DNA of 64,000 nucleotides from Candidatus Omnitrophota bacterium (GTDB taxonomy: Bacteria > Omnitrophota > Gorgyraeia > Gygaellales > Profunditerraquicolaceae): NCBI GenBank assembly GCA_963805065.1, contig CAWDSS010000010.1, positions 792,359 to 856,358 on the forward strand, written 5' to 3'. Both the position numbers and the translations under genes were made by a program. Shown here one piece after another: positions 9,703-60,877 of the stretch. The stretch's first letter is position 1. Every line of letters starts with the position of its first letter. The notes under the pieces were generated by a model. It ran no database searches, was not told where the DNA came from, and saw nothing but the letters and a program-made list of their open reading frames with translations.

Positions 9703-10520
9703 TGAAGGAAATAGTATTTTCAAACGGAAAATTCCTGGCTGCAGAGGATGCGAAAATTCCCGTGAGTAGCCTGGGTTTATTAATGGGCTTAGGATTGTTT
9801 GAAACCATGCGCTCATACAATAAAAAAATAGTTTATTTGGATAAGCATTTAACTAGGATTAAGAATTCCTGCAAACTGATTAATTTGAAATTTCCTTACT
9901 CTATAAGCAAGTTAAAGAATAGCATTAAAAAGACAGTAGAACTTAATGCTATTCAAGATGCCTATGTAAGATTAACATTATGCAAATCCGTATCCGGGAC
10001 AGATTGTATAATTTTGTTAAAAAAATACACCCCCTTTCAGTTGGCAAAATATAAAAAAGGCTTTTCAGCAATAGTTTCACGATTTCTACAGGATGAAAAC
10101 TCTTTGCTTTCGCAAATCAAAACCACAAACCGTATGATTTACGAAATTGCGCTGCAGGAAGCAAAACTCGCAGGATGTGACGAGGCACTATTCCTTAATA
10201 ACAAAGGCTTTATCGCAGAGGCCTCGCGAAGCAATGTTTTCCTGGTAAAGAACCAGGAAATTTTTACGCCTTCTCTACAATGCGGTTGTCTTGATGGCAT
10301 CACCAGAAGAGTTATCCTTGATTTGGCAAAAAAACACCATTTGAAGGCCAGTGAAGGAAATTTTACCTTGCAGGAATTATATTATGCTGACGAGGCGTTT
10401 TTAACCAATTCTTTAATCGGGATTATGCCTTTGACTTGCATAGAAAAACATGCTATTGGCAAGGCCGGAAGAGGCGAAACAACAGAGTTTTTGATAAAAA
10501 AATACGATTCCTTACTTTAA
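9702..10520 (+). CDS. pabC: aminodeoxychorismate lyase / class IV aminotransferase
   Basis: Fold-type IV PLP enzyme pattern (..RSNVF.., GITR, ..FLTNS..), immediately downstream of pabB. Confidence 0.7.
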   Translation: MKEIVFSNGKFLAAEDAKIPVSSLGLLMGLGLFETMRSYNKKIVYLDKHLTRIKNSCKLINLKFPYSISKLKNSIKKTVELNAIQDAYVRLTLCKSVSGTDCIILLKKYTPFQLAKYKKGFSAIVSRFLQDENSLLSQIKTTNRMIYEIALQEAKLAGCDEALFLNNKGFIAEASRSNVFLVKNQEIFTPSLQCGCLDGITRRVILDLAKKHHLKASEGNFTLQELYYADEAFLTNSLIGIMPLTCIEKHAIGKAGRGETTEFLIKKYDSLL

Positions 10521-10522
10521 AA

Positions 10523-11668
10523 ATGCATCTAGAAACCATAACAATACCTTTTAAACTAAAAAAGCCTATTCTTGCATTGGGCAGCCAAACCAAAAATACA
10601 ATTTGTTTTGTAAAAGGTGATACTGCTTATATTAGCCCGGTGCACGCTGATTTAAGCAATCCACAAGACTTTTTACAATTCGAGAAAGACGTAAAATATT
10701 TTCTTAAACAAAGGCCAAAAATCATTGCTTATGATTTACACCCGGAATATCAATCCACAAAATATGGTCTTGAGCTTTCAGCTTTCAGCTTTCAGCTTTC
10801 AGCTGTGCAGCATCATCATGCGCATATAGCTGCCTGTATGGCAGAGAATGGCTTGAGTAACCAGAAAGTCATTGGCGTAGCTTTTGACGGCACTGGTTTA
10901 GGCGCGGATGGCTCGCTTTGGGGAGCAGAGTTTCTGATTTGCGACTATAAAAATTTTGTGCGTAAAGCCCATGTTCAAGAAATAGTTCTTCTGGGAGGAG
11001 AAAAAGCAATATTAGAACCCTTTAGGCTCACAGCAGCCTGGCTTTTCCTGGCCTATGAAGGCAGGTTTTTAAACCTGGATATTGATTTCGTGAAGAAACT
11101 GGATAAAAAGAAATGGCTGGTTTTAAAGCAAATGCTTGTATCGGGATTTAACTCTCCGTTGGCAAGCAGCATGGGCAGGCTTTTTGATGCAGCTGCTAGC
11201 CTTGTGTTAAGCAAGTATAAAGCTAGCTTTGAAGCAGAGCTGGCGATTGAATTAGAAAAATTAGCTGTTAGTTTTCAGTCGTCAGTTTTCAGTCGTCAAC
11301 TTTCAGCTATCAGCTATCAGTTTAAAATCATTAAAAGCAAAAATGATTATATCTTAGATCCTGCTTTAATTTTTAAAGGAATAATTCAAGATTTAAAAGC
11401 TGGCACGCCAAAAGAGAAAATTGCTTACAAGTTTCACAAAACTATTGCTGAAATGATAAATAAAACCTGTAGAATTTTAAGAAAGGGTAGCGGCATAAAC
11501 AACGTGGTTTTATCAGGCGGGGTTTTTCAAAATAAGCTTTTACTTAAGTTAAGTTCGGATTTATTATATAAACATAAGTTTAGATTATATATGCACAAAA
11601 ATTTATCCTGCAATGACTCAGGAGTTTCTCTCGGTCAAGCTTTAATCGCAAATTTTTCAAAGGGTTAA
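10523..11668 (+). CDS. hypF: HypF-like protein consisting only of the C-terminal Kae1-like domain
   Basis: LGSQTKNT, DLHPEY, QHHHAHIAA and AFDGTGLG..LWGAEFL match the HypF C-terminal half. The acylphosphatase, Zn-finger and YrdC parts are absent. I use the ATG at 10523, just after the pabC stop. Confidence 0.7.
   Translation: MHLETITIPFKLKKPILALGSQTKNTICFVKGDTAYISPVHADLSNPQDFLQFEKDVKYFLKQRPKIIAYDLHPEYQSTKYGLELSAFSFQLSAVQHHHAHIAACMAENGLSNQKVIGVAFDGTGLGADGSLWGAEFLICDYKNFVRKAHVQEIVLLGGEKAILEPFRLTAAWLFLAYEGRFLNLDIDFVKKLDKKKWLVLKQMLVSGFNSPLASSMGRLFDAAASLVLSKYKASFEAELAIELEKLAVSFQSSVFSRQLSAISYQFKIIKSKNDYILDPALIFKGIIQDLKAGTPKEKIAYKFHKTIAEMINKTCRILRKGSGINNVVLSGGVFQNKLLLKLSSDLLYKHKFRLYMHKNLSCNDSGVSLGQALIANFSKG
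10773..10807. repeat. heptanucleotide tandem repeat (AGCTTTC)x4 plus a degenerate unit, inside hypF
   Basis: Read directly: agctttc agctttc agctttc agctttc agctgtg. Confidence 0.9.
11263..11325. repeat. degenerate heptanucleotide array (AGNNNTC)x9 inside hypF
   Basis: Read directly: agctgtt agttttc agtcgtc agttttc agtcgtc aactttc agctatc agctatc agtttaa. Confidence 0.85.
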
Positions 11669-11882: not shown

Positions 11883-12957
11883 TGAATTCAGGAATATAGC
11901 CCTGGTTAACAAGCTAAAGGAGAAAATAAAAAATATCGCTCCTTTAGGAGCAATAAATTTTATGGAAGTGTGCGGCACGCATACTCAAAGTTTTCGCAGG
12001 TTCGGTTTGAATAATATGCTCCCCAACAATATCAGGCTGATTGCCGGCCCGGGCTGCCCTGTGTGCGTTAGCTCGCAAGGATACATTGATAATGCGATTA
12101 CCCTGGCACACCGTAAAGAGGTAATTTTGGTTACATTCGGAGATATGCTGCGTATTCCCGGCACTAGCTCCACGCTGGAAAAAGAAAAGTCTCTCTACTC
12201 TAACGTGCGCGTAGTTTATAGCGCCTGGGAAAGCCTGAACATTGCCAAACAAAATCCCGATAAGCAAGTAGTGTTTTTAGCAGTGGGTTTTGAAACCACG
12301 GCTCCCACAATTGCCTTAAGCATAATCGCCGCTAAACAGGAGAAATTAAATAATCTATCTTTCTATTCTTCTCTGAAGTTGATTCCTCCTGCCATGGATT
12401 ATCTGGCAAGGGACAAAAGGTTAAGGCTGGACGGGTTTTTGTGTCCCGGACACGTTTCCTCCATAATCGGAACCAGGCCTTACCGATTCCTGCCTCAAAA
12501 ATACGGCGTGGGTTGCTGCATAACCGGATTTGAGCCGCTGGATATTTTAGAAGGCATATACATATTATTACGCCAAATTAAGGAATGTAAGCCAAGAGTG
12601 GAAAACCAGTACAGCCGCGCAGTGGCAAGAGAAGGAAATTTAAAAGCGCAAAAGACAATCTGGCAAGTTTTTCACACCTCTGATGCTTATTGGCGGGGCT
12701 TGGGAAAAATCCCCCAAAGCGGGCTTAAAATAAGAGAAAAATTCGCAAAACTCGATGTAGAAAAAATATTCCCCATAGCAAAAAATGAATTTGTTAAGTT
12801 TCAACAAAAGAAATGCCGCTGTGCCGATATTTTAAAAGGGCTTATCTCTCCTTTGGATTGTCCTTTATTCTTAAAGGTGTGTTCTCCGGAAAATCCCATC
12901 GGTCCGTGCATGGTTTCCCTGGAAGGAGCGTGTAATGCGTATTATAAATACCGGTGA
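11869..12957 (+). CDS. hypD: hydrogenase maturation protein HypD
   Basis: Motifs EVCGTHT, GPGCPVCV and FETTAP, plus the C-terminal Cys cluster. Confidence 0.9.
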   Translation: MKYVDEFRNIALVNKLKEKIKNIAPLGAINFMEVCGTHTQSFRRFGLNNMLPNNIRLIAGPGCPVCVSSQGYIDNAITLAHRKEVILVTFGDMLRIPGTSSTLEKEKSLYSNVRVVYSAWESLNIAKQNPDKQVVFLAVGFETTAPTIALSIIAAKQEKLNNLSFYSSLKLIPPAMDYLARDKRLRLDGFLCPGHVSSIIGTRPYRFLPQKYGVGCCITGFEPLDILEGIYILLRQIKECKPRVENQYSRAVAREGNLKAQKTIWQVFHTSDAYWRGLGKIPQSGLKIREKFAKLDVEKIFPIAKNEFVKFQQKKCRCADILKGLISPLDCPLFLKVCSPENPIGPCMVSLEGACNAYYKYR

Positions 12958-15361
12958 AAAGTTAAAAGTAAAAAGCAAAAAGGTAAAAGTGAAAAGCCAA
13001 AAGTTAAAAGTGTTGATTTTTGCGTTTTGCATTTTGGGTTTAACTGCCGGTTGTATTCAGAAAGACGAACTAGAGCTGGCGCAGGAATGTGTAGGCAAGT
13101 CCGATGTCTACTACCAGCATGCCATTGAAAGGTACAAGAAATTAATTAATAAAGGCAAGGACTTAGACAGGCTGTATTTTGAACTGGGCAGGTTGTATTA
13201 CTCGCACGGTGAATTTGACAAGTCTAAACATGCCTTGGAAAAAAGCGCGGCTTTACAGGGACATAAGCTTCTGGCTATATCTGATTATAAACTGGGTAAT
13301 TTTACCGATGCCCTGGAAATTTTTGGCAAGGATAATATTTCCGATGATGAATACCTGTATTATTACGGTTTAACCTGCGAAAAATTGAACCTGTTTGATA
13401 AAGCCCTGGATATTTATAAAAAGATAAAAGGCAATAAATTTATTCCGCTCGCACAGGCACGCATAAATATCATCCGCAATGATGGAGCGTTGCAAACAAT
13501 AGAACAAAAAGACCCCAACATTTATAAAATTATTCAATCCGCGCCATCCCCAGAAGCCTATCCTCAGGCAGGGGCGCTTATTCTGTCCTGCGATGAAAGA
13601 ATCGAAGTCACTGACAAAAATAGCGAAGTTTCAGACATGCACTACGTGATTAAGATTTTAAATGAACGGGGAAAGGAAGATTTTTCAGAAAGCCACATTG
13701 AATACGATTCTACCTATGAAAAGGTAGAATTGGAGTATGCGCGCACCATAAAACCGGACGGCACGATTACAGATGTGGGCAGCCGCCATATCCGCGATGT
13801 CTCCAAATATTTAAATTTTCCCCTCTACAGCAATGTGCGGGTTTACATAATTTCCTTCCCGGAAATTACTGAAGGTGCAGTCATAGAATATAAGGTAAAG
13901 ATTTACAGGAACGAGCTTATCAACAAAAAGGATTTCGTGATAAATTATCCTGTACAATCAAGCGAGCCGGTAATCTTCGCGGATTTTACGGTTACATTGC
14001 CCAAAGGCAGAACTCTGAACCTAAGGACATTAAATGAAAAATACAACAATTTCAACGCCAATCTTAAGCCAGCAATAAACGAACAAGGCACGCGCTTAGT
14101 TTACAGTTGGCACTTTAATAATATCCCTCAGATAATCCCTGAATCCAACATGCCTCCTAACGTAGAGATAAACCCCGCGATACTTATGTCCACTTTTAAT
14201 TCATGGCAAGATATTTATAATTGGTGGTGGGCATTAGCAAAAGATAAAATAAAAGCAGATAAGACTATAGGAAACAAAGTCGCTACCTTAACGGGGAAAT
14301 TAAGTTCTGATGAGGCCAAAATCAGGGCGATATATAATTTCTGCGCAAAAGAAATCCGCTATGTAGCGGTTGAATACGGGCAGGCAGGCTATGAGCCGCA
14401 TAAAGCAGAAGATATATTCCAGAATAAATACGGAGACTGTAAAGACCAGGCAATTCTTTTAGTTACGATGCTTAAAAATTGCGGGTTTACTGCCTGGCCG
14501 GTGTTGATTTCTACAAACGATTATTATAATATGAACCCGGATTTTCCGGCAGTGCTGTTTGACCACTGTATTGCTGCCGTGCAGTTAAAAGACAAAATAA
14601 TATTCCTTGATCCTACGGCGCAAACCTGCTCTTTTGACGACCTGCCAGGAGGGGATCAGGACAGGCAGGTATTGGTATTTAAAGAGAATACCTTTGCGAT
14701 ACAGTTAACACCCCTGTATCCTGCAGGGCATAACCTGGTAAAACAGGCGGCAAGCATCAAAATTAACAATGATGAAACTATAACCGCTAAAAAAGACATC
14801 TTTACCTATGGAATGTATGATCAGGCACAGAGGTATTGGCTCCTGTTTACTCCTCCTCAGCTAATCGAAGAAAAATTGAAAGAGAGAATCCAGGAAGTCT
14901 CTATCGGAGCCAAACTTAGTAAATATGAAATAAAAAACTTAGATAACCTTAATGAGCCCGTAGTATTAAGTTATACATTTAGCGGGCCGGAGTATCTTAC
15001 TATTGCAGGGCCGTTAAGGATTATGCCGCAGCTAGCAAGCCTGGATTCGACAATGGTAGCCAGAGACAAGCGTAAATACCCCATTGATCTCACTATCTTA
15101 GACAAGAAAGAATCGGTGTTGGAGATTGAATTCCCCAAGAATTTCACAATTAAATATATGCCCCAGAGCGTTTCCGAGGACAGCCCCTGGATGTCATTTA
15201 AAGTTGAGTATACCCCTAAAGGCGATAAGCTGGTATTCAGGCAGGTAGCCGAATTAAAAAAGAAAGTCATAGAGGAGCAGGATTACCCTGCTTTTAAAGC
15301 GTTTTTTGATAAATTAGCCAGGCAGATAAAGCAAAGAGTTGTCTTAGAAAAGATAAAGTAA
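12935..15361 (+). CDS. lipoprotein with TPR repeats, a DUF3857-like region and a transglutaminase-like cysteine protease core
   Basis: Lipobox LTAGC. TPR-like helices follow. YGDCKDQAILLVTMLK resembles the transglutaminase-like core Cys. Confidence 0.65.
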   Translation: MRIINTGEKLKVKSKKVKVKSQKLKVLIFAFCILGLTAGCIQKDELELAQECVGKSDVYYQHAIERYKKLINKGKDLDRLYFELGRLYYSHGEFDKSKHALEKSAALQGHKLLAISDYKLGNFTDALEIFGKDNISDDEYLYYYGLTCEKLNLFDKALDIYKKIKGNKFIPLAQARINIIRNDGALQTIEQKDPNIYKIIQSAPSPEAYPQAGALILSCDERIEVTDKNSEVSDMHYVIKILNERGKEDFSESHIEYDSTYEKVELEYARTIKPDGTITDVGSRHIRDVSKYLNFPLYSNVRVYIISFPEITEGAVIEYKVKIYRNELINKKDFVINYPVQSSEPVIFADFTVTLPKGRTLNLRTLNEKYNNFNANLKPAINEQGTRLVYSWHFNNIPQIIPESNMPPNVEINPAILMSTFNSWQDIYNWWWALAKDKIKADKTIGNKVATLTGKLSSDEAKIRAIYNFCAKEIRYVAVEYGQAGYEPHKAEDIFQNKYGDCKDQAILLVTMLKNCGFTAWPVLISTNDYYNMNPDFPAVLFDHCIAAVQLKDKIIFLDPTAQTCSFDDLPGGDQDRQVLVFKENTFAIQLTPLYPAGHNLVKQAASIKINNDETITAKKDIFTYGMYDQAQRYWLLFTPPQLIEEKLKERIQEVSIGAKLSKYEIKNLDNLNEPVVLSYTFSGPEYLTIAGPLRIMPQLASLDSTMVARDKRKYPIDLTILDKKESVLEIEFPKNFTIKYMPQSVSEDSPWMSFKVEYTPKGDKLVFRQVAELKKKVIEEQDYPAFKAFFDKLARQIKQRVVLEKIK
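12954..13042. repeat. inverted pair of heptamer arrays: (GNNAAAA)x8 followed by (GNNTTTT)x4
   Basis: Read directly. It spans the hypD stop and the first ~35 codons of the next ORF. Confidence 0.85.
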
Positions 15362-15364
15362 AGA

Positions 15365-17308
15365 GTGAACAGAAAAAATTATCATATTCCCGAAAGAAGA
15401 AAATACATAAGGCTTGATACGGTATTGCCGGTGCAGTTTTGCCTGTTGAGCCTCGATGATAAACAATGCCTGTCAGAAGAATTACAGGGGTTCACAAGTA
15501 ATGTAGGTAAAGAGGGCATTTGCCTAACCGTAAATAATCTTGAGGCAAAACTCGCCGAGATTATAAAGGAAAAGAAAGCAAAGTTTTCTTTAGGTATAGA
15601 CCTGCCTCTTACTGTAGGCACTGTCGGCGCATCGGCAACAATAGTCTGGATGCAAAAATTAAGTGCGGGTTCGGATAAATATTTAATCGGTTTAAAATAT
15701 GAACATATTGACCGCGGGCAAAATAATAAAATCATGCTTTATGCCAGAGGCAAAAAATTATTCATTCCCACAGTCTTAATCGTTATTATTTTATTGAGTT
15801 TAAGTTTTGCGCTAGCCAGTTTCGTAAACATTAAATTAATCGAAAGGAACAAAGCACTGGTTAAGCAATTGGTAAATACTATCCAGGAATTAAATATTAC
15901 GAACCAGAAGGCCAAGGGAATAAGTAAGCAGAGCGAAGCACTACAACTGGAAATTAAAGAGCTCCAGTTACGCATCCAATCAGCCCAAAATGAAGCAGAA
16001 AATTTGGCTAAGAATGAATCAAAATCCCTAGAGAAAATCAAGGGATTAAACAGCTTGATTGCCAGGTTGATGAATGACAAGGCTTCCTTGCAGCAAAAGT
16101 TGGCGGGCCTGCAAAAACAGGAGGATGTTGTTACGCAAGAGTTGCTTCGCCTGGACAAAAAGAAGACGGGCCTGGAAAAAGCCAATATTGATAAGATGTA
16201 TGATTGGTTAAAAATACACCAGAATCCCAGAACCGGCTTGGTAATGAGTTTCGAGGGGGATAATGATATCGCAAACTGCGGATTTACTTATGACCAGGCA
16301 CTGGTTATACAGGCCTACACATATTTCGGAGATTTTGAACGGGCGAAAAAAATATTGGATTTCTTTGATAAAAAAGCAAAGTACTCCAAAGAAGGATTAT
16401 TCTACAATGCCTATTATACCAGCGACACAGAGCCTACTGAATACATCGTGCATAGCGGCCCGAATATTTGGCTGGGGATAGCGGTTCTGCAATACACCAA
16501 GAAGACCGGCGATACCCAATATTTAAGATTGGCACAGGGCATTGCCGACAGTTTGATAGTTTTACAAGATCAGGATAAGGAGGGCTATATCAGGGGCGGC
16601 CCTAATGTAGAATGGGTTGCAACAGAGCACAATCTTGATGCATATGCTTTCTTTAATATGCTCTATAAAATTACGAGAGATTTCGTGTATCTGGAAAAAG
16701 CAAATAAGGTATTAAATTGGTTAGTGAAACATACATATGATAATAAAGATATTCCGGTTAAACGCGGTAAGGGTGATTCTACTATTGCCACAGATACTTA
16801 TGCCTGGTCATTGGCAGCCATAGGCCCTAAGAAGCTTGAAGGATTGGGCCTTAATCCAGAGAGAATTCTAGAATTCGCAGAAAATAATTGCGCGGTAGAA
16901 GTAAATTATACCAGGCCGGAAGGCAGGACTACGAGAATAAAAGGGTTTGATTTCACCGCACAGAGAAATTTAGCAAGAGGAGGCGTTGTTTCTGCTGAGT
17001 GGACGGCGCAGATGATTGAGGCATTTAAAATAATGGCGGATTTTTATGCCAGGAAAGGGATTAAACCCAAGGCGCATATTTACGAGATGAAGGCAGAAGA
17101 ATACATGACGCAGCTGGGTAACATGATTATATCAAGCCCCTCTCCTTCCGGGCAGGGTGAGAGTTGCCTGCCTTACGCAACGCAGGATTTTGTAGATACC
17201 GGCCATGGCTGGATGACACCGAAAGGTAAATCTACGGGGTCTTTATCCGCCACTACTTACGGGATATTCGCTTACTATAATTATAATCCCCTGGAACTCA
17301 AGGAATGA
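15365..17308 (+). CDS. PilZ-domain / TM / coiled-coil protein with a large uncharacterised C-terminal domain
   Basis: N-terminal RRKYIR plus ..SNVGKEG.. resemble the PilZ RxxxR and DxSxxG motifs. A hydrophobic segment lies at about aa 135-155, followed by a heptad-rich stretch. Confidence 0.55.
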   Translation: MNRKNYHIPERRKYIRLDTVLPVQFCLLSLDDKQCLSEELQGFTSNVGKEGICLTVNNLEAKLAEIIKEKKAKFSLGIDLPLTVGTVGASATIVWMQKLSAGSDKYLIGLKYEHIDRGQNNKIMLYARGKKLFIPTVLIVIILLSLSFALASFVNIKLIERNKALVKQLVNTIQELNITNQKAKGISKQSEALQLEIKELQLRIQSAQNEAENLAKNESKSLEKIKGLNSLIARLMNDKASLQQKLAGLQKQEDVVTQELLRLDKKKTGLEKANIDKMYDWLKIHQNPRTGLVMSFEGDNDIANCGFTYDQALVIQAYTYFGDFERAKKILDFFDKKAKYSKEGLFYNAYYTSDTEPTEYIVHSGPNIWLGIAVLQYTKKTGDTQYLRLAQGIADSLIVLQDQDKEGYIRGGPNVEWVATEHNLDAYAFFNMLYKITRDFVYLEKANKVLNWLVKHTYDNKDIPVKRGKGDSTIATDTYAWSLAAIGPKKLEGLGLNPERILEFAENNCAVEVNYTRPEGRTTRIKGFDFTAQRNLARGGVVSAEWTAQMIEAFKIMADFYARKGIKPKAHIYEMKAEEYMTQLGNMIISSPSPSGQGESCLPYATQDFVDTGHGWMTPKGKSTGSLSATTYGIFAYYNYNPLELKE

Positions 17309-17973
17309 AGCCAGTTTTGAATTCTGTTTATAAAAAACTCTACGCATATTTTGGGCCTCAGCACTGGTGGCCAGGCGAAAGCCGCTTTGAGGTTATGGTA
17401 GGAGCAATACTTACGCAAAACACTAACTGGTCTAATGTAGAAAAAGCAATTGCCAATATCAAAAAACAAAACTTATTGCAATTCCAAAGGCTTCAAAGGC
17501 TGTCGCACAAAAGATTAGCCAGCTTAATCAGGCCTGCCGGTTATTATAATCTCAAGGCAAGGCGTTTAAAGGAATTCTTAAAATTCCTGCACAATCATTG
17601 CCGGGGTAATCTTCGTAAAATGTCCTGCGGGCCCATGGATGAACTGCGAGAGAAATTACTCTCTGTGAAAGGCATTGGCCCTGAGACAGCAGATTCTATC
17701 TTACTTTATGCTTTGAACAAGCCTGTGTTTGTGGTAGACGCATACACAAAAAGAATACTCTTGCGGCACAACATAATCAGAGAAGACTCCGATTATGCCG
17801 CAGTGCAAAATTTGTTTATGGAAAATCTAAAAAATGAGGTAAAATTATTCAACGAATACCATGCGTTATTAGTCAGGTTGGGTAAAGAATTCTGCCTCAA
17901 AAATAAGCCTAAATGTAAAGGATGCCCGATAAACTCAAAACGCAAAAGTCAAAATGCAAAACTTACAACGTAA
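17305..17973 (+). CDS. endonuclease III-like HhH-GPD DNA glycosylase family protein
   Basis: HhH motif LLSVKGIGPETADSILLY. Catalytic D in the VVDAYT context. C-terminal Cys residues. Confidence 0.7.
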   Translation: MKPVLNSVYKKLYAYFGPQHWWPGESRFEVMVGAILTQNTNWSNVEKAIANIKKQNLLQFQRLQRLSHKRLASLIRPAGYYNLKARRLKEFLKFLHNHCRGNLRKMSCGPMDELREKLLSVKGIGPETADSILLYALNKPVFVVDAYTKRILLRHNIIREDSDYAAVQNLFMENLKNEVKLFNEYHALLVRLGKEFCLKNKPKCKGCPINSKRKSQNAKLTT

Positions 17974-18683
17974 AACGCAAAACAAAAGTTTTGTCATTTG
18001 GTATTTGTGCTTTGAGCTTATTTTGGATTTTGTGCTTTGATATTTGTCATTTCGCTTATGCTGCGCCCTGTTACGGAACTAAGCTGCCTGAAAAAAACCA
18101 AATTTTTACGGGATTGCAAAGTTATTCTGTTTTTAACCGGTATCTGGAGGATGATGATGGAAAATTAAGGAGCCAGCAGGAATTTTTGCTTCTCTCCTAC
18201 GGGTTCCTAGATTGGTTATCTGTTGATTTAAAAGGAGGGGCAGGCTACATAAAACAGCATCCCTTCGGAAGCGATGAGCTTGATTATCCGACGTATCTAG
18301 GAGGTGGATACGGATTCAGAATTAAATTTTTTGATAAACAAAACACCAAGATGGTTTTTGGTTTTCAGCACATAAGCGTGCATCCCTATACTATTAGCGT
18401 AGAAGGCGTAAAGAACAAGGCAGTTTTAGATGATTGGCAGTTTTCCTTACTGGCATCGTATGATTTCAAGAAAATTACACCTTATCTGGGAACCAGGTGG
18501 TCCTGGCTGGATTATATCCACTGGACAAATGGTAATAGTAAATTAGAAAAGTCGGATTTAGGTAAGAGTGTCGGCCTGGTAGTAGGTTGCGACCTTCCCG
18601 TGAACGAGAGGTTCTGGTTTAATTTAGAAGGACAATTCTTTGATAGCGAAGCCCTCGCCTTCAGCGCGAATTATAGTTTTTAA
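17922..18683 (+). CDS. putative outer-membrane beta-barrel protein
   Basis: K-rich N-region, hydrophobic core and AYA cleavage-like site. Alternating aromatic/Gly strands and a terminal aromatic residue (..NYSF). Confidence 0.45.
   Translation: MPDKLKTQKSKCKTYNVKRKTKVLSFGICALSLFWILCFDICHFAYAAPCYGTKLPEKNQIFTGLQSYSVFNRYLEDDDGKLRSQQEFLLLSYGFLDWLSVDLKGGAGYIKQHPFGSDELDYPTYLGGGYGFRIKFFDKQNTKMVFGFQHISVHPYTISVEGVKNKAVLDDWQFSLLASYDFKKITPYLGTRWSWLDYIHWTNGNSKLEKSDLGKSVGLVVGCDLPVNERFWFNLEGQFFDSEALAFSANYSF
17934..18060. repeat. inverted pair of heptamer arrays: (NNCAAAA)x7 followed by (NTTTGNN)x~9
   Basis: Read directly. It spans the 3' end of the endoIII-like gene and the N-terminus of the next ORF. 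Confidence 0.85.
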
Positions 18684-33496: not shown

Positions 33497-34852
33497 ATGA
33501 CTTATCCAGAAGCAGTCAAGTATCTGGAATCTTTTATTAACTACGAAAAAATCCCCGCCTATCCTTACAAGGAGTCTTGTAAGCTGGAACGCATTAAAGA
33601 CTTTTTAGGCTTAATCGGTAACCCGCAAAACTCTCTTAAGACGATTCATATTGCCGGGACAAAAGGAAAGGGCTCAACCTGCGTTTTTATAGCCCATATA
33701 TTACGGCAGGCAGGTTACGCTACAGGCCTTTATACATCTCCGCATTTATCTGACTTCAGGGAGCGGATACGAATATTGATTCCCAGAACCCAGAACCCAG
33801 AACCCAGAACCGATTTCGAGGGTATGATCTCTAAGGATGAATTAACCTTGTTGGTAAAAAAGCTTAAACCCTCAGTAGAAACATTCAATAAAAATTCAGA
33901 ATACGGTCCCCTTTCTTTTTTTGAAGTATATACTGCATTAGCTTTCCTGTATTTTAAGAACAAAAATGTCGATTTTGCGGTATTGGAAACGGGTTTAGGA
34001 GGCAGGCTCGATGCCACTAATGCCTCTGATTCTTTTGTCTGTGCTTTAACTTCTCTAAGTTATGAACATACACAGAAATTGGGTAACGCCCTAAGAGAAA
34101 TAGCTGCTGAGAAAGCAGGAATCATAAAAAGGCAAAAGGCAAAAGGCAAAAGGCAAAACTCAATTGTGATAAGCGCGCCGCAGGAAAAAGAGGCGATGGA
34201 TGTAATCAGAAAGCGGTGCAAAGAGACAAATGCCAAATTATACGAAGTCAATAAGGATATATTTTATGAGAAAACAATAAAAGGATTTAATCTGCTGGGT
34301 ATATATGGGGAATACCCGAATTTAGAAATCAGGCTTTTAGGCGATCATCAGTTGATAAACGCAAGCGTAGCAGTCGCTGCAATAGAGGCATTGCGCGATT
34401 TTGGTGTTATCATAGGCATTGATTCTATAAGAAGCGGCCTTTATAATACTGTCTGGCCTGGACGCTTGGAAGTCGTGGGCAGAAGTCCTTTAATAATATT
34501 AGACGGAGCGCAAAATATTGCTTCTGCTAAGGCAATAAAACAGGCAATTAAGGGAAATTTCAAATATAAAAGGCTGATACTGGTTTTAGGAATTTCCCAA
34601 GACAAGGATTTATCAGGCGTGTGTGGCGAGTTAAAGGATATAGCAGATGCGGTAATTTTGACTAAGGCCAACAACCCCAGGGCAACTGGCCCGCAAATGT
34701 TACGCAGCTATTTTAATGAAGAATGCGTCTTTATAACTAATAATGTTAAACAGGCAAAGCAAAAGGCACTGTCAATGGCTAACAAGGACGATTTAATTTT
34801 AGTTACAGGTTCTTTATTCGTTGTCGGAGAATTCAGGGATGTTAAAATTTAA
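33497..34852 (+). CDS. folC: folylpolyglutamate synthase / dihydrofolate synthase
   Basis: HIAGTKGKGST, YTSPHL, ETGLGGRLDATN and DGAQN. Confidence 0.88.
   Translation: MTYPEAVKYLESFINYEKIPAYPYKESCKLERIKDFLGLIGNPQNSLKTIHIAGTKGKGSTCVFIAHILRQAGYATGLYTSPHLSDFRERIRILIPRTQNPEPRTDFEGMISKDELTLLVKKLKPSVETFNKNSEYGPLSFFEVYTALAFLYFKNKNVDFAVLETGLGGRLDATNASDSFVCALTSLSYEHTQKLGNALREIAAEKAGIIKRQKAKGKRQNSIVISAPQEKEAMDVIRKRCKETNAKLYEVNKDIFYEKTIKGFNLLGIYGEYPNLEIRLLGDHQLINASVAVAAIEALRDFGVIIGIDSIRSGLYNTVWPGRLEVVGRSPLIILDGAQNIASAKAIKQAIKGNFKYKRLILVLGISQDKDLSGVCGELKDIADAVILTKANNPRATGPQMLRSYFNEECVFITNNVKQAKQKALSMANKDDLILVTGSLFVVGEFRDVKI
33782..33811. repeat. heptanucleotide tandem repeat (CCCAGAA)x4.3 inside folC
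   Basis: Read directly. It encodes ..PRTQNPEPRT.., inserted after the conserved FRERI motif. Confidence 0.9.
34131..34158. repeat. heptanucleotide tandem repeat (GGCAAAA)x4 inside folC
   Basis: Read directly. It encodes ..KAKGKRQN.., inserted after the conserved EKAGIIK motif. Confidence 0.9.
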
Positions 34853-36221
34853 TACAAACGATACAATTGTCGCTATTGCCACTTCCATGGGGGAATCTGG
34901 AATAGGAATTGTACGTATCAGCGGCAAATGCGCTTTAAAAATCGCCGACAGAATATTTGTTTCCAAGAATAACCAAAAGGCCTCGACTTTTAAGACCTAC
35001 ACCACCCATTATGGATGGATAATGGATAAAGGAGAAATTATCGACGAGGTAATATTAACAATAATGCGTAAGCCGCGCTCTTTTACCAGGGAAGATGTTG
35101 TGGAAATCAATTGCCACGGGGGGCTAGTGGCTTTACGCAGGGTCCTTGAGCTGGTTTTGGAAAATAACTGCCGGTTGGCAGAGCCTGGAGAATTTACAAA
35201 AAGGGCTTTTTTAAACGGCAGAATTGACCTTACGCAGGCAGAGGCAGTCTTAGATATTATCCGCGCCAAAACGGATTGCGCATTAAACATAGGGTTAGAG
35301 CAATTAAGGGGAGGCTTATCCGGCAAGATAAATAAAATCAGAAAAAGACTTTTGGATATTGTTTCCCAGATGGAAGCAAACATTGATTTTCCGGAGGAAG
35401 AAATAGGCTCCGCTAATTTAAAACAAATGCGAGAGAATTTGCTTGATATAAATAATGAGCTGCTAAATATACTAGCGACTTCTAAGCGTGGAAGGATAAT
35501 GCGAGAAGGAATACACGTGGTTATATGCGGAAAACCTAACGTGGGCAAGTCTTCGCTTTTAAATGCGTTATTGAAACAGGAGCGCTCCATTGTCACTCCC
35601 GTAGCCGGCACAACCCGTGACACCATAGAGGAGATAATCGACATAAAAGGCATACCCGTGAGGATCGTCGATACAGCCGGAATCCTGGAACCAAAGGATT
35701 TAATAGAGAAAAAAGCAGTCCAGCGTTCAAAAAGGCATATTGGCTTGGCTGATCTTGTAATTCTTGTGTTTGACGGCAGCAGGCCATTGACCGATAATGA
35801 TGAGTTGCTTATGCGCAAATTAAATAAAGGCAACGTGATTGCTGCGATAAATAAATCAGACCTAAGACAACTCATCAAGCGCGAAAAGATTTTGAAAAAA
35901 TTTAAATACGTGGTGGATATTTCGGCAAAAAAACTTAAAAACATAAATCTCCTGGAAGACAAAATTGTTAACCTGGTTTATGGCGGGAAAGTAGCAATTA
36001 ATGAGCCGGTAACCCTGAATAATTTAAGGCACATATCCTCCATGCAGGAAGCACAAATTCTTATTGCGCAAGCAGTTAATTCATCGGATAATAATTTGTC
36101 CCTTGAATTCGTTTCCCAAAGCCTCAAGGATGCGCTTTTGTATTTGGATGACATATTGGGTTTAAGGTTCAGTGAAGACTTGCTGGATAAGATATTCAGC
36201 GATTTTTGTATCGGCAAATAA
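34839..36221 (+). CDS. mnmE: tRNA uridine-5-carboxymethylaminomethyl modification GTPase MnmE
   Basis: N-terminal DTIVAIAT, GKPNVGKSSLLN, DTAG, C-terminal CIGK. Start taken at the internal ATG 34839. Confidence 0.9.
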   Translation: MLKFNTNDTIVAIATSMGESGIGIVRISGKCALKIADRIFVSKNNQKASTFKTYTTHYGWIMDKGEIIDEVILTIMRKPRSFTREDVVEINCHGGLVALRRVLELVLENNCRLAEPGEFTKRAFLNGRIDLTQAEAVLDIIRAKTDCALNIGLEQLRGGLSGKINKIRKRLLDIVSQMEANIDFPEEEIGSANLKQMRENLLDINNELLNILATSKRGRIMREGIHVVICGKPNVGKSSLLNALLKQERSIVTPVAGTTRDTIEEIIDIKGIPVRIVDTAGILEPKDLIEKKAVQRSKRHIGLADLVILVFDGSRPLTDNDELLMRKLNKGNVIAAINKSDLRQLIKREKILKKFKYVVDISAKKLKNINLLEDKIVNLVYGGKVAINEPVTLNNLRHISSMQEAQILIAQAVNSSDNNLSLEFVSQSLKDALLYLDDILGLRFSEDLLDKIFSDFCIGK

Positions 36222-48588: not shown

Positions 48589-49029
48589 ATGAAGAAGTTA
48601 TTATGTTTGATTACAGTTGTTTCTTTTTTATTTTTAGCGATTGGCTGTTGCACAATAGTTAGCGGTAGGAATCAAAATCTTCCTGTGATATCTACTCCGA
48701 GTGGCGCAAGAGTTATAGTTAATGGTGTTCAGCAACAGTCTCCTTGCACATTAGTATTGGATAGGCAACAACTTTTATATCAAGTTAGGATAGAAAAGGA
48801 TGGTTATGAACCTGTAGAAATAACTTTACGCAGAGGAGTAAATGGTTGGGTATGGGGCAATATTCTGTTTGGTGGTATTATTGGTTTAATAGTCGACATT
48901 TGCACAGGCTCTGTTCATAAATTTACGCCTACAGAAGTGGAAGTAAATTTAGTTCAGAAAAAATTAGGTCTAAATGATTTAAAGAGCAAAGATATACTAT
49001 TTGTTAAATTAGAAGAAGTAAAACATTAG
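48589..49029 (+). CDS. PEGA-domain lipoprotein
   Basis: Lipobox LAIGC. PEGA-like ..GARVIVNGV...PCTLVL......VRIEKDGYEP. C-terminal GNILFGGIIGLIVD segment. Confidence 0.6.
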   Translation: MKKLLCLITVVSFLFLAIGCCTIVSGRNQNLPVISTPSGARVIVNGVQQQSPCTLVLDRQQLLYQVRIEKDGYEPVEITLRRGVNGWVWGNILFGGIIGLIVDICTGSVHKFTPTEVEVNLVQKKLGLNDLKSKDILFVKLEEVKH

Positions 49030-49061
49030 CATTATTCCATCCAAGTCTTATTCAAGCTTGG

Positions 49062-49349
49062 ATGGATGTCTTTATTATTAAGTATATTTCTAAAATGACT
49101 AGAAAACAATTAATAGTTGCTTGGCTTATGGGGATAGCAATTTGCGCTACGTTCTTATTTTATCCTAAACGATATTTCATTAGTGAAAAAGGTTATCAAT
49201 GCTTCTTTGATAAATTGGATAAAGATGATATGTATTATCATAGCGCAATGCCAGTTATGCAATGGGGCTATGTTATTCCCATTTCTCTTTCAATTTTAAT
49301 CATAGGTGGTTTATTAAGCTATACTCTTCGGGAAAGACAAAATAAATAG
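49062..49349 (+). CDS. small two-TM membrane protein
   Basis: Two hydrophobic segments. No motif. Confidence 0.35.
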   Translation: MDVFIIKYISKMTRKQLIVAWLMGIAICATFLFYPKRYFISEKGYQCFFDKLDKDDMYYHSAMPVMQWGYVIPISLSILIIGGLLSYTLRERQNK

Positions 49350-49366
49350 TTAGCATAGGAAACGCT

Positions 49367-50176
49367 ATGAAAAAATATTTGATAATAGTAATATGTTTAT
49401 TGTTGTGCGGATGCGCATCGCCTAGTCTCTATATACGTTCTGATATGGATAGCGACTATAAGCTGGCAAAATCAACAGATAAAATATCGGTATTGATTAT
49501 TGACGATACAGATATAAGAACTCGAGAATTTGGTAAACTATTAATATTCGAAATGAAAAATGCAGGTTTTAATATCGTTGATAACGTGCTGGATTCTAAC
49601 ATTACACTATGCTATACGTTAGACCAAGAAACATCACAAATTGATTTAAGTCTACCAATGACCACTCCTTCTTATACAAAAGGTTCTTTTTCTACCTATG
49701 GAGCCTATGGGAGCGGAAGTGGAACATATTCTCAAACGACCACACAAACACAATATATCCCTTATTCTGTGCCTTTTACAGTCAAGTCAGTGTTAATTTC
49801 GCTTTATCCAACATGGAAATTCGATTTCAAGAAATCTATATGGGAAGGCTATTTAGGGGTAGAAGAAGGAACATTCAAAAAATATGCGAAAGACTGTGTT
49901 AGAATGCTCTTGTCTCATTATGGCGAAAATTTTGATGGTTACGTCCCTTTAACAATAAAAAAGATAAATAATAAGGTGAAAGTCGATATAGAATCTTTTA
50001 ACAATCAGCGTCTTGAAGAAAAAGAAAGAATCAGAAAGAAAATAGCTGACTTTGCTCGTCAACATAAAGATTTTGAAGAACTAAGACCTATTATGTATAA
50101 ACTTTCTTTAGACCCGAAGAATGCAAATCTTACTTTACAGGAATTGTATGATATGGCAAAAAACAAGAAACCCTAA
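49367..50176 (+). CDS. lipoprotein of unknown function
   Basis: Signal peptide with lipobox LLCGCA. Confidence 0.5.
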   Translation: MKKYLIIVICLLLCGCASPSLYIRSDMDSDYKLAKSTDKISVLIIDDTDIRTREFGKLLIFEMKNAGFNIVDNVLDSNITLCYTLDQETSQIDLSLPMTTPSYTKGSFSTYGAYGSGSGTYSQTTTQTQYIPYSVPFTVKSVLISLYPTWKFDFKKSIWEGYLGVEEGTFKKYAKDCVRMLLSHYGENFDGYVPLTIKKINNKVKVDIESFNNQRLEEKERIRKKIADFARQHKDFEELRPIMYKLSLDPKNANLTLQELYDMAKNKKP

Positions 50177-50305: not shown

Positions 50306-50470
50306 ATGGACATCCGCAAGATAAGAAAGAAACTTAACCTTACTCAAGAACAGCTAGCACAAAGATTAGGCGTCTCGTTTACTACGGTTAATAGGTGGGA
50401 GAAAGGCAAGAATGAGCCTAGTCCTCTGGCTCTTAGGGCATTAGAAGAATTGGAGAATAAGATAAAATGA
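50306..50470 (+). CDS. 54-aa HTH protein (not in the ORF track), possible directionality or regulatory factor
   Basis: Translation [39 protein letters not shown].. Its stop overlaps the recombinase start (ATGA). Confidence 0.6.
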
Positions 50471-52092
50471 AGGTAGCCATTTACGCAAGAGTGTCAACAG
50501 AGAAACAAGAAAAACAGGAAACAGTCCAGTCTCAGCTAGAGGCCTTAAGGGATTACGCTAAGAAGAGTAACTATACCGTTTGTGGAGAGTATATTGACGA
50601 GGGTTACTCTGGCGAGCTGTTAGACAGGCCAGCATTGGACAGGTTAAGAGACGACGCTAAGAAGAAACTCTTTGATATTGTTTTGGTTCATTCTCCAGAC
50701 AGGTTTTCAAGAAAGTTTATTTATCTAGGGCTAGTTCAGGAAGAGTTAAAGAAAAGCGGGGTTAATATCGTTTTCTTGAACAGGCCAGACAGCAAGGATA
50801 CTCCCGAAGATAATCTCTTAAATGGAGTGCAAGGCCTTATTGCTGAGTATGAGAAGGCAAAGATATTAGAGCGCACCCGCAGGGGCAAGCAACATAAAGC
50901 TAGGGCGGGCGTAATAGTTACTAGCATTGCTCCTTATGGGTATCGATATATCCAGAAAGATAAAAGCCAGAATAAAGACGGCTACTATGAGATTAATCCA
51001 GAGGAAGCAACGGTTGTAAGTATGATATTTGACCTCTTCGTCAATAAGCAGATGAGCATTAGAGCGATAGCCAGAGAATTGACCCGACGAGGTATAGCGA
51101 CCCGCAAGGGCAAGCATTGGCGCACAAGCACTCTACACAGGATAATTCGCAATGAGACTTACGCAGGGGTTACTTACTATAATAAGCATATCGCTATGGA
51201 ATCGCTTAAGCCAAGAAAAGATAACGGATACAGAAGGCGCAAGAATTGCAGCTTGCACCTGCGTCCAAGAGAACAATGGATTCCTATTCAATTGCCAGAG
51301 CAGTTAAGGTTGGTCGATAGAGAGACCTTTGATTCAACGCAGAAGCAACTTAAGCGGAATAGCGAATTATCACCTCGCAACGTTAAATATCAATATTTAT
51401 TGAAAGGCCTTTTGCAGTGTGGGGAGTGCAATTCTCCCTATTTAGGTACGCCTTGCCATAGTAAACTGTATTATAGGTGCGGTAACAGACATCGAACATT
51501 CCCCTTGCCTAAAGAGTGCAAGGCGCCGACGCTTAGCGCTCCTATTCTTGAGAATTTAGTTTGGTCTACACTTAGTCAAGCAATACAGCACCCTCAAATA
51601 ATCATTGAGCAGGCTAAGAGGTTGCACTTTAACGAGGGCAAACGGCGCAGAGATACCGAGAAGGAATTAGAGCGGGTAGAAACTGCCTTAGTCAATACGC
51701 AGAAAGAAGAAGATAGGTTGTTAGACGCCTATCGCAGTGAAATTATAACCCAAGAGCAATTAAGGGCGCAGATGGCCAAGATTCAAGAGAAGAAAGACAC
51801 GCTGAGCAAAGAAAAACAGAGATTAAACGAGGTAGTATCTCAAGTTGTGCCAGTAGACCGAGTAAAAAATAGCATAAAAGAGCACTGTAAACTAGTAAAA
51901 CCCCGCCTGAAAAATCTCACTTTTGAGGAAGAGCAACAAATTTTACGCCTACTAGTTAATAAGGTAGTGCTTGAAAGGGATAAAGTTAGAATAAAAGGCG
52001 TAATTCCTCTCTATGGCGAGAATGGTGATATTGCGTCCCAATCATCAGCGCATTATGCCCGCCGGCAACAGCTACCTCCAAAGCCCTTTTAG
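50467..52092 (+). CDS. large serine recombinase (integrase)
   Basis: N-terminal resolvase domain [12 protein letters not shown] (catalytic Ser) and ..SPDRFSR... Recombinase domain, Cys-rich zinc ribbon (CGECNSPY...CGNRH) and coiled coil. The ORF runs across the right att core. Confidence 0.9.
52037..52048. repeat. right att core (CCCAATCATCAG)
   Basis: Identical to 40279-40290. Confidence 0.8.
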
Positions 52093-58254: not shown

Positions 58255-59521
58255 ATGAAAAAAAGAAGAGTAGTGATAACCGGAATTGGCGTAGTTTCTC
58301 CCAATGGCATAGGTAAACATAAGGTTTGGAAGGCCATGTCCGGCGGAAAATCCGGGGTAAAACTTGTGGATGGGTTTGATGTTTCTGTATTCAATACCAA
58401 GATTGCAGCTGAGGTGAGAGATTTTGATCCTTTTAAATTAGGGCTTACTCACGAAGAAGTGATGCGTATGGATAGATACGTGCAGTTTGGGGTGGTCTGC
58501 GGGAGATATGGCGTTAAAAGACAGCGGGTTGGATTTTTCCAAAGAGGACCCCCAGCGCATCGGGGTATGCTTGGCTAATGCAATCTGCGGCACAAAATAT
58601 ATGGAAGAAGAATTTGCCTTGGTTACCGAGGATGGTAAGAATCCCATTGACCCTTCAAAGGTGCGGCCGGATCTGTATGATGCGGCAATGTTTAATACGC
58701 CCTCTATAGAAATCAGCGCAAGATACGGTTTAAAAGGAATCTGCAATACTCTTTCTACGGGTTGCACTGCCGGAACTGATTCCTTGGGATTTGGTTTAGA
58801 GACTATCCAGGATGGAGAACAGGATATCATGATCTGCGGAGCAGCAGAAGCACCGATTACCCCGATTACCTTTGGCGCATTTGACGTGGTAAATGTCTTA
58901 TCCGTGCGTAATGATGAGCCCGGAAGAAGCCAGCCGTCCCTTTGATAATAAGCGCGATGGTTTTGTCTTATCCGAGGGCGCAGGGATCTTGATTTTAGAA
59001 GAATTAAATCATGCATTAAAACGTAATGCCCATATTTATGCGGAGATCTTCGGTTTTGGCACAAGCTGCAATGCCTTTCATATGACAGACCTTCCTTCAG
59101 ACGGACGGGCAATGGCCAGTTGTATTAGCCTGGCTTTAAAAGATGCTGGATATCAAACCGCAGGAAATAGATTATATCAATGCCCATGGTTCATCCACGC
59201 GGATGAACGATATATTTGAAACCAATGCCTATAAGGCGATATTTGGCGATTACGCCTATAAACTGCCGATAAGTTCCCTTAAGTCGATGATCGGCCATCC
59301 TTTGGCAGCGGCAAATGCCATAGAGATGACCGTCTGCTCGATGATTTTTGAGAAGAATATCCTTCCTCCGACGATAAATCAGGAAGAAAAAGATCCTCTT
59401 TGCGATTTGAATTATATTCCCAATACAGGCAATACAAAAAAAAGTCAACACCATATTAAAAACCAGCAGCGGATTTTCCGGGATACATTCATCATTAGTA
59501 TTAAAGAGGTATACAGGATAA
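58255..59521 (+). pseudogene. beta-ketoacyl synthase (KS-alpha type), frame broken about 4 times
   Basis: VVITGIGVVSPNG. Active-site TGCTAG (Cys). EIDYINAHGSST (His). KSMIGHPLAAA (His). Successive +1 shifts near 58495, 58915, 59150 and at the A8 run at 59441-59448. The reconstructed end ..SSLVLKRYTG* overlaps the next ATG. Confidence 0.8.
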
Positions 59522-60755: not shown

Positions 60756-60877
60756 GTGTAATGTGTAAAGTGTAATGTGTAATGCAGGTGTAATGTGTAT
60801 ATGTGTAACGGATAAAGCACTTGCATCACACAATCAAACATTACACAACGTTACACATTACACGTTAAAGTTACACA
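60756..60877. repeat. heptamer arrays (GTGTAAT)x~7 and inverted (ATTACAC)x~4 forming a long imperfect hairpin
   Basis: Read directly. It fills the intergenic gap between KS-beta and the radical SAM gene. Confidence 0.85.

Follow-up and report, generated by a model that had tools for sequence, protein, structure and literature searches.

In Neisseria, the opa genes carry pentameric CTCTT repeats in the region that codes for the signal peptide, and these repeats are perfect and demonstrably hypermutable. The palindromic elements of Rickettsia, dispersed as discrete copies of a conserved sequence 100-150 bp long, lie in frame within coding genes and are translated. By secondary accounts, heptanucleotide repeats lead the over-represented long simple repeats of many prokaryotes, and polymerase slippage has been suggested as their origin (Mrazek and co-workers 2007, as cited in PMC4692102 and PMC4679880). 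Marine Beggiatoaceae, cyanobacteria and some Bacteroidetes have direct TAACTGA repeats upstream of start codons (PMC4679880), and heptamer arrays of the GGGAATC or GGGGAYT type, some of them inverted pairs, are found in Xanthomonas and Nostoc (PMC4692102). In exported proteins of Plasmodium, the expansion of lysine-rich tandem repeats is outlined as a source of targeting sequences (PMC5207086). Here we describe an A-rich and a T-rich heptamer array at the junction between an endonuclease III-like (EndoIII-like) gene and the gene for a probable outer-membrane protein (OMP) in a 64-kb stretch of Candidatus Omnitrophota bacterium DNA (contig CAWDSS010000010.1), hereafter the window. Our favored explanation, to which we give somewhat better than even credence, is that both are heptanucleotide microsatellites, expanded by replication slippage at a gene junction inside an operon and then absorbed by the two reading frames.

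Heptamer arrays at the EndoIII/OMP junction

The features of the junction are as follows.

17305-17973, plus strand: EndoIII-like (HhH-GPD) gene, 222 aa (Pfam PF00730, E = 8.9e-19)
17922-18683, plus strand: gene for a secreted protein, probably an outer-membrane beta-barrel (the OMP), 253 aa, with a 47-residue predicted signal peptide and the C-terminus ...NYSF
17922-17924, plus strand: the sole in-frame ATG of the OMP, made from conserved EndoIII Gly/Cys/Pro codons (GGA TGC CCG)
17934-17982, plus strand: A-rich heptamer array, seven units of the NNCAAAA type (Tandem Repeats Finder, TRF, and a lag-7 identity of 0.71)
17954-17956, plus strand: a second ATG within the array (AAAATGCAAAA), one base out of the OMP frame by frame count and three-frame translation
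17971-17973, plus strand: TAA stop of the EndoIII-like gene, supplied by the variant unit CGTAAAA
17978-17993, plus strand: small palindrome CAAAAC-AAAA-GTTTTG at the boundary of the A-rich and T-rich arrays
17989-18060, plus strand: T-rich quasi-heptamer array, about nine NTTTGNN units (lag-7 identity of 0.56)
18054-18062, plus strand: A-Y-A codons, the predicted signal peptidase I site, giving the mature start APCYGTK; the same junction occurs in 118 orthologs

The original prediction held that NNCAAAA units cover the end and stop of the EndoIII-like gene together with the N-terminus of the next open reading frame (ORF), and that about nine NTTTGNN units code for the hydrophobic core of that ORF as far as an AYA site. 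Sequence and translations agree with the first statement, and the second holds as well, the T-rich units coding for the hydrophobic core up to an AXA site; on the whole the original reading proved largely right. The A-rich units read, in order, CTCAAAA, CGCAAAA, GTCAAAA, TGCAAAA, CTTACAA, CGTAAAA and CGCAAAA; five of the seven are exact NNCAAAA and two are variants. Because an exact NNCAAAA unit cannot hold a stop, the TAA of the EndoIII-like gene comes from a variant. After CAAAAG, the T-rich units are TTTTGTC, ATTTGGT, ATTTGTG, CTTTGAG, CTTATTTTGG (10 nt), ATTTTGTG (8 nt), CTTTGAT, ATTTGTC and ATTTCGC, with two phase slips at 18017-18034. The palindrome between the arrays is kept across the window's clade in the form ...CAAAAC-N3-6-GTTTTG.

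Seven is the one outlying period in the window. TRF reports 17931-17983 as 7.6 copies of a period-7 unit with 73% matches and a score of 50; it makes no call on the T-rich part, 17989-18060. At all lags other than 7, self-identity is 0.18-0.45 in the A-rich part and 0.23-0.41 in the T-rich part, and the observed lag-7 identity was reached by none of 5000 mononucleotide shuffles of either part. Across the whole window, self-matches of at least 36/49 occur at periods 7 and 14 only, all others among periods 2-15 having maxima of 26-30. The junction is identical in L001 (L-numbers denote the loci compared), a separately assembled short contig (Logan run ERR10755942) that may share its source sample with the window. 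An exact contig look-up gave no hit for the OMP and, for the EndoIII-like gene, only one 1.3-kb twin contig.

The A-rich array would be read in two frames, as the tail of the EndoIII-like protein and as the lysine-rich n-region of the OMP signal peptide. In the first of these frames the EndoIII-like ORF ends in ...CPINSKRKSQNAKLTT before its stop, and the array encodes the last 12-14 residues (...INSKRKSQNAKLTT). The closest named homologs of this protein are from Candidatus Omnitrophica, and most of 120 EndoIII orthologs terminate at ...CPLK (210 aa) with no tail, as had been anticipated, while a minority have lysine-rich tails such as KSQKSKVKTQNHN. We also considered the tail as a substitute for the fourth EndoIII cysteine, an iron-sulfur ligand, and rejected this, since the whole orthologous family ends in CPLK without a fourth C-terminal cysteine.

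In the second frame, the OMP ORF overlaps the EndoIII-like gene by 52 nt and begins MPDKLKTQKSKCKTYNVKRKTKVLSFGICALSLFWILCFDICHFAYA, followed by APCYGT. Its predicted signal peptide comprises the n-region MPDKLKTQKSKCKTYNVKRKTK, the h-region VLSFGICALSLFWILCF... and the cleavage motif AYA/A, with a hydrophobic maximum of 2.6 at residue 27; the T-rich array encodes the h-region VLSFGICALSLFWILCFDICHF. As judged from the sequence, the layout fits what is expected of a Sec-type signal peptide, namely a positive n-region, a 10-20-residue h-region and, at -3 and -1, small residues. The mature domain likewise appears to be of an exported type: the start A/APCYGT is conserved among 876 homologs, of which a few orthologs match PF13505 or PF01308, and canonical signal peptides of 20-25 residues precede it in 45 of 118 orthologs. 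In that set, 46 signal peptides span 8-25 residues (these 45 among them) and 68 span 29-95 residues, and in the long ones amino-acid identity peaks at lag 7. Near the N-terminus of 44 of the 68 long signal peptides lies a start of the M[PSA]x[KE] type, most frequently MP[VIL]K, and it is the ATG formed by the conserved EndoIII Cys-Pro codons. This ATGCC start is seen again in L003, L005, L009, L090 and many orthologs that begin MP[VIL]K. In the window, ATG 17922 and TTG 17991 are the only in-frame OMP starts that remain. The second ATG, at 17954, lies 34 nt from the GTT at 17988 and would be in frame with the OMP if the array had one heptamer fewer.

The coding properties of the two units suggest how such arrays could be accommodated. 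For (NNCAAAA)n, all 48 unit-by-frame combinations are stop-free and give 39% Lys+Arg and 1% Asp+Glu, the peptide being rich in Lys, Gln, Asn and Ser in all three frames. For (TTTTGNN)n, 81% of residues are hydrophobic, with Phe, Leu, Cys and Val prominent, and stops arise only with the unit TTTTGAN. Since the units give the needed composition in any frame, the arrays are tolerated as n- and h-regions, and they may persist because signal-peptide n- and h-regions, like protein termini, constrain composition only. A ribosome translating the EndoIII-like gene would read on through the A-rich array until a variant unit supplies TAA, and the protein would thereby gain a tail that is probably functionless. 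The OMP start would have shifted to ATG 17922, built from EndoIII Cys-Pro codons, and the array would be translated as a 22-residue n-region with a net charge of +9, ahead of a normal h-region and the AYA site. That the A-rich array is stop-free and basic in every frame thus explains the EndoIII tail, the gene overlap and the +9 n-region together.

The window holds a second case, and the earlier claim that 12954-13042 shows the same pattern was borne out by TRF period-7 arrays and a lipoprotein signal peptide that ends in the lipobox LTAGC.

12954-13042, plus strand: HypD/lipoprotein junction, with TRF period-7 arrays that are A-rich at 12957-13011 and of the TTTTGCG type at 13018-13041

The HypD stop occupies 12955-12957, the lipoprotein starts at ATG 12935 and its lipobox spans 13040-13054; the downstream protein is a DUF3857/transglutaminase lipoprotein.

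Orthologous junctions and the history of the arrays

Many Omnitrophota contigs keep the gene order lipoprotein, 647-aa protein, EndoIII, OMP, M20 peptidase and PAC2, several of them with HypD upstream. The EndoIII/OMP junctions within the window's own clade compare as follows.

Window: A-rich part of seven mixed units; T-rich part taken as the reference
L088: A-rich part of TTCAAAA x4 plus others; T-rich part almost identical to the window
L089: A-rich part of TCCAAAA units that follow the EndoIII stop (1465) and precede the OMP ATG (1501); T-rich part almost identical
L086 and L090: remnants only of the A-rich part; T-rich part almost identical to the window

The T-rich array is near-identical in nucleotides across L086, L087, L088, L089 and L090, and it is far more stable than the A-rich array, which varies in unit and copy number at the same site in the window, L086, L088, L089, L090 and L002. 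Aligned with L086, the window has about 41 additional bases, equivalent to about six units that grew out of a single CAAAAC already in place, and apart from these a deletion of about 20 nt, by which the EndoIII LK-stop was lost together with the ancestral proximal start ATG ATA AAT. L002, the nearest syntenic relative, is fully syntenic with the window (amino-acid identities of 75% for EndoIII and 72% for the OMP), and its EndoIII/OMP junction has no A-rich array and an ordinary MINFKIR... start; the A/T pair is found at its HypD junction instead. Going by these alignments, the T-rich array is vertically inherited coding sequence in the window's clade and the A-rich array a labile, recent expansion. 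The two had been proposed as a single architecture; both do lie at the junction, but their histories differ.

No instance was found of the same protein termini without the period of seven: orthologs that lack arrays have short termini, and long termini come with arrays. Canonical orthologs such as L006 and L007 use strong Shine-Dalgarno sites, and so the array-bearing junctions are derived states. In other lineages the h-region is built from other units, including TTATTTT, ATTTTGA, TTGCTTG and TTTTTACTTTTACC. Perfect runs of a unit are present in relatives, with TTCAAAA repeated four times in L088 and AAAAGTC three times in L003.

Two side observations concern related junctions. At the HypD/lipoprotein junction of L002 (1621-1730), the arms form a 25/31 inverted repeat, part of which resembles the array at the OMP junction of the window in the opposite orientation. 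In L011 (6189-6265), L023 (10624-10760) and L024 (4857-4955), the slot between EndoIII and M20 holds, in place of the OMP, an unrelated 912-aa secreted protein with the mature start AEPPRYDIE...; the L011 copy has a signal peptide, KVLSFVICVLIFICHSVYA, whose nucleotide sequence is homologous to that of the OMP signal peptide in L090 and the window's clade.

Period 7 as a property of the genome

Within 1.2 Mb of related loci we found 26 period-7 arrays and at most eight at any other period from 4 to 15. The original prediction had argued from its two cases to a general mechanism. The excess of period 7 is indeed general, but it is not specific to signal peptides. Among 13 strongly hydrophobic N-termini flagged in the window, a set that takes in likely signal peptides as well as membrane anchors and a small number of cytoplasmic proteins, only two are periodic (p7 of 0.50 and 0.56, the other 11 being at or below 0.38), and arrays also occur within the genes of the cytoplasmic enzymes HypF and FolC and in one spacer between genes. 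What underlies them is the already known general excess of heptanucleotide repeats, acting here at a permissive gene junction.

The FolC-like gene has two perfect arrays, CCCAGAA x4.3 at 33782-33811 and AAAAGGC x4.6 at 34127-34158. Compared with the solved FolC of Thermotoga maritima (PDB 1o5z), each is an in-frame insertion (PRTQNPEPRTD and KRQKAKGKRQN), and for this reason we conclude that such arrays are translated in this organism. The HypF-like ORF (10436-11668, 410 aa), which comprises only the C-terminal Kae1-like domains, has a perfect AGCTTTC x4.6 array at 10773-10804, encoding LELSAFSFQLSA immediately ahead of the conserved VQHHHAH motif, and AGTTTTC, AGTCGTC and AGCTATC units at 11270-11320. 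The intergenic spacer holds an inverted pair.

60756-60875, no strand assigned: inverted heptamer pair GTGTAAT... / ...ATTACAC, intergenic, between the ORFs 59143-60750 and 60890-62224

A short period-7 array, ATGGATA x2.7, is found at 35015-35033 in the overlap of the ORFs 34821-36221 (plus strand) and 35009-35962 (minus strand). Elsewhere, the ORF 50467-52092 has an N-terminus that looks by eye like that of a serine recombinase; it follows small lipoprotein-like ORFs at 48589-50176, and the region may be a mobile element or island.

Competing explanations and known systems

Several observations weigh against the absorption of slippage-grown microsatellites into both frames. ATG 17922 has no Shine-Dalgarno motif ahead of it, an AAAGGA directly abutting the start codon, and the in-frame TTG 17991 could begin a 24-residue signal peptide without a charged n-region, which leaves translation of the A-rich array unproven. 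The homologous A-rich array of L089 is untranslated. The segments L003 3505-3625 and L005 2751-2871, about 120 nt containing the start codon, the A-rich array, the spacer and the T-rich array, are 100% identical, and because their flanking coding sequences are only about 72% identical, this is not what simple neutral slippage predicts. (Such perfect conservation also runs counter to the fast evolution that signal peptides usually show.) The window array closely resembles the L002 array at a different junction, that of HypD, and shares the 12-mer ACAACGTAAAAC with the reverse complement of the L002 T-rich arm. The L003/L005 identity, this likeness and the signal peptide shared by L011 and L090 may reflect recombination or cassette-like behavior. 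Finally, the hairpin that the two arrays can form is significantly more stable than composition-matched shuffles.

We scanned metagenomes for a run of four A4 units with three TTTG units 2-32 nt further on and obtained at least 80 loci (L091-L170), on contigs with GC contents of 0.22-0.72 and in gene contexts that are almost all different. Among the matches listed, a flanking protein is common to only 7 of 3160 locus pairs, most elements lie between ORFs rather than within them, and the arms are true inverted repeats, with variable-position complementarity of 0.71 within elements and 0.54 between elements (p = 7e-11). Examples are TGCAAAA x4 ... TTTTGCA x4 and GGCAAAA x4 ... TTTTGCC x4, and a subgroup (L092, L104, L132, L148 and L150) has the common ends CAAGTC...GACTTG. 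Inverted heptamer arrays are thus common junction elements. A bolder idea, which we regard as doubtful, is that (NNCAAAA)n-spacer-(TTTTGNN)n pairs are a widespread, undescribed class of hairpin-forming junction elements in uncultured bacteria that serve as proto-signal-peptides independent of frame and orientation, repeatedly replacing or creating secretion signals. It builds on an A-rich arm that is stop-free and lysine-rich in any frame, a T-rich arm that is hydrophobic, and a reverse complement with the same layout. If it is true, the element can stay while the mature protein is swapped, as in the EndoIII-M20 slot with its OMP or 912-aa protein. The two A/T cases of the window match the metagenome elements in layout but not in arm-to-arm complementarity.

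It is unlikely, on balance, that the A-rich array is an untranslated, unstructured leader or initiation region, with only the T-rich array coding and the OMP starting at TTG 17991, for example by re-initiation 18 nt past the EndoIII stop. The untranslated array of L089 and the lack of a Shine-Dalgarno motif before ATG 17922 speak for such a leader, as do the ATGs retained close to the h-region in L086, L002 and L088, and a translational role has been proposed for the TAACTGA heptamers directly upstream of Beggiatoaceae start codons (PMC4679880). However, a start at TTG would yield MSFGICAL..., which has no positive n-region, whereas all canonical orthologs are of the MRK or MKK type. Moreover, the window, L090, L003/L005 and L009, which represent several independent lineages, have no proximal start, yet in each the frame is open from the Cys-Pro ATG through the array.

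The stability of the hairpin raises the decidedly unlikely alternative that the arrays are kept as a long RNA hairpin that controls the downstream gene, for translational coupling in which the EndoIII ribosome melts the left arm, or for mRNA processing or stability in the manner of repetitive extragenic palindromic (REP) elements.

17928-18022, plus strand: potential RNA/DNA hairpin with its left arm at 17928-17964, a loop of 21 nt and its right arm at 17986-18022 (inverted repeat I1, with 75% complementarity over arms of 36 nt)

The segment 17925-18025 folds with a minimum free energy of -23.7 kcal/mol (z = -3.1), the lipoprotein element of the window at -26.0 kcal/mol (z = -3.2), L003 at -27.8 kcal/mol (z = -3.6) and L088 at -30.1 kcal/mol (z = -4.2). 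With the lipoprotein junction of L002 (z = -2.8), the range is -2.8 to -4.2 where an A-rich array exists, against -0.8 in L086 (-24.6 kcal/mol), which has none. The junction's own z of -3.1 belongs to the tight bounds, a wider 181-nt fold giving -1.0. The perfect conservation of the whole element between L003 and L005, the GTGTAAT/ATTACAC pair (-46 kcal/mol, z = -5.1) and the complementary arms of the metagenome loci also favor a kept hairpin. On the other hand, permuting the units or reshuffling the variable bases gives equally stable folds (a fraction of 0.05-0.93 being at least as stable, for the window elements), and Watson-Crick complementarity at variable positions is 0.39 and 0.53 in the two window elements against a null of 0.54. 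The value of 0.39 is that of the OMP junction, where the arm match is confined to the CAAAA/TTTTG cores. The pairing is automatic because CAAAA cores face TTTTG cores in the same 7-nt phase, and the long A:U hairpin would then be a by-product of those cores.

Other observations also count against a maintained hairpin. The A-rich arm ranges from about three to about ten units while the T-rich arm is constant, and the close relatives L002 and L086 manage without an A-rich array. Rfam at gathering thresholds matched no family anywhere in the window, a promoter and terminator scan found nothing at the junction, and the stem is almost all A:U, unlike an intrinsic terminator or a REP-like element. 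A structural function of the hairpin is thus possible but unsupported. Specifically maintained RNA pairing was rejected, since permutation removes the signal and variable positions are at the null, and an apparent excess of G:U-compatible differences seen by eye was dropped. Copying of the A-rich arm from the T-rich arm by quasi-palindrome correction was rejected as well, with three of eight variable bases matching in a hand alignment.

A phase-variation switch, in which gain or loss of a 7-nt unit shifts the frame of the OMP or lipoprotein or brings ATG 17954 into frame, much as CTCTT repeats do in opa, is improbable. The setting is suggestive: in two envelope-protein genes a non-triplet repeat separates the start codon from the gene body, two ATGs in different frames lie 32 nt apart, and copy number varies among relatives, L088 having four perfect units. 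But no two adjacent units of the window's A-rich array are identical, and with 73% matches slippage should be rare. In addition, the junction is unchanged in L001, the sole near-identical contig compared and possibly from the same sample, and L003, L004 and L005 have equal copy number despite flank divergence of about 28%.

A small mobile or gene-converting palindromic element, akin to a MITE (miniature inverted-repeat transposable element) or a Rickettsia palindrome, that inserts at the 5' ends of genes with a ready-made charged and hydrophobic module seems very improbable to us. The cassette-like observations above would fit it: window 17934-17965 (CTCAAAACGCAAAAGTCAAAATGCAAAACTTA) is nearly identical to the L002 array at the other junction, the arms of L002 are inverted repeats, the signal peptides of the L011 912-aa protein and the L090 OMP are homologous, the L003 and L005 arrays match perfectly, and similar elements occur in many metagenome contexts. 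Yet comparison with L002 and L086 reveals no target-site duplication, sharp boundary or duplicated flanks, and the L086 alignment instead shows stepwise growth in situ and a separate deletion, beside an orthologous T-rich part. Low-complexity units also make chance likeness likely, and the 64 kb, out of a source contig of 1.19 Mb, hold only two copies of the A/T type (plus one of the GTGTAAT type).

Finally, a chance by-product of codon composition, with AAA/AAG lysine codons followed by TTT/TTG/ATT hydrophobic codons in an AT-rich genome (GC 39.8%) where n- and h-regions are expected to be A-rich and then T-rich, is effectively refuted and merits almost no credence, given that lag-7 identity far exceeds other lags and every shuffle and that the other 11 flagged N-termini lack comparable periodicity.

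If the absorption of slippage-grown microsatellites into both frames is the right explanation, the junction is a clear natural case of mutation-driven low-complexity DNA becoming functional protein sequence. A microsatellite would have furnished a secretion signal with its charged and its hydrophobic part, created a gene overlap, moved a start codon upstream and added a tail to a repair enzyme. This would also account for the span of orthologous Omnitrophota signal peptides, from about 20 to more than 60 residues, and it would make annotated start codons and protein termini beside such arrays unreliable. The origin and role of inverted heptamer arrays between genes of many uncultured bacteria would likewise become open to study. 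A literature search on Omnitrophota tandem repeats, and on heptanucleotide or lysine-rich repeats in signal peptides, found no description of the phenomenon. That Omnitrophota systematically absorb heptamer arrays into their signal peptides, into protein tails and into gene overlaps appears to be new.

The closest relatives of these arrays are the heptanucleotide simple sequence repeats of prokaryotes, with which they share tandem 7-nt units, period 7 as the outlier, variation between relatives and slippage as the proposed cause (secondary accounts in PMC4692102 and PMC4679880). As those accounts present them, such repeats are mainly intergenic, whereas the arrays described here run through two overlapping frames and form a protein tail and a signal peptide; neither the Omnitrophota lineage nor the NNCAAAA/TTTTGNN unit pair is among the examples found there. 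The TAACTGA repeats also adjoin translational starts and vary in presence between close relatives with the same neighborhood (PMC4679880). They differ in their unit (NNCAAAA/NTTTGNN in the window), in containing forward stops and being almost always untranslated, and in having no described paired inverted array or link to a signal peptide. The GGGAATC and GGGGAYT arrays are likewise heptamers, some in inverted pairs capable of forming stem-loops, with length variation at the same intergenic site, but they are G-rich, quadruplex-forming, intergenic and untranslated (PMC4692102). The Plasmodium case, as outlined in PMC5207086, resembles this one in that repeat expansion in an AT-rich genome yields a lysine-rich, low-complexity peptide within a localization signal; it is eukaryotic, involves another unit and targeting system, and has its repeats in the mature protein, not in a signal peptide that is cleaved off.

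The remaining two systems involve repeats that are translated or lie within coding sequence. Like the opa repeats, the arrays are non-triplet repeats inside the signal-peptide-coding part of an outer-membrane-protein gene, but the window's units are unlike their neighbors, and in the few close comparisons their copy number seems stable. With the palindromic elements of Rickettsia they share palindromic repeat DNA that is tolerated and translated within ORFs; the arrays of the window, however, grow in place, their units change, and no element boundaries are visible.

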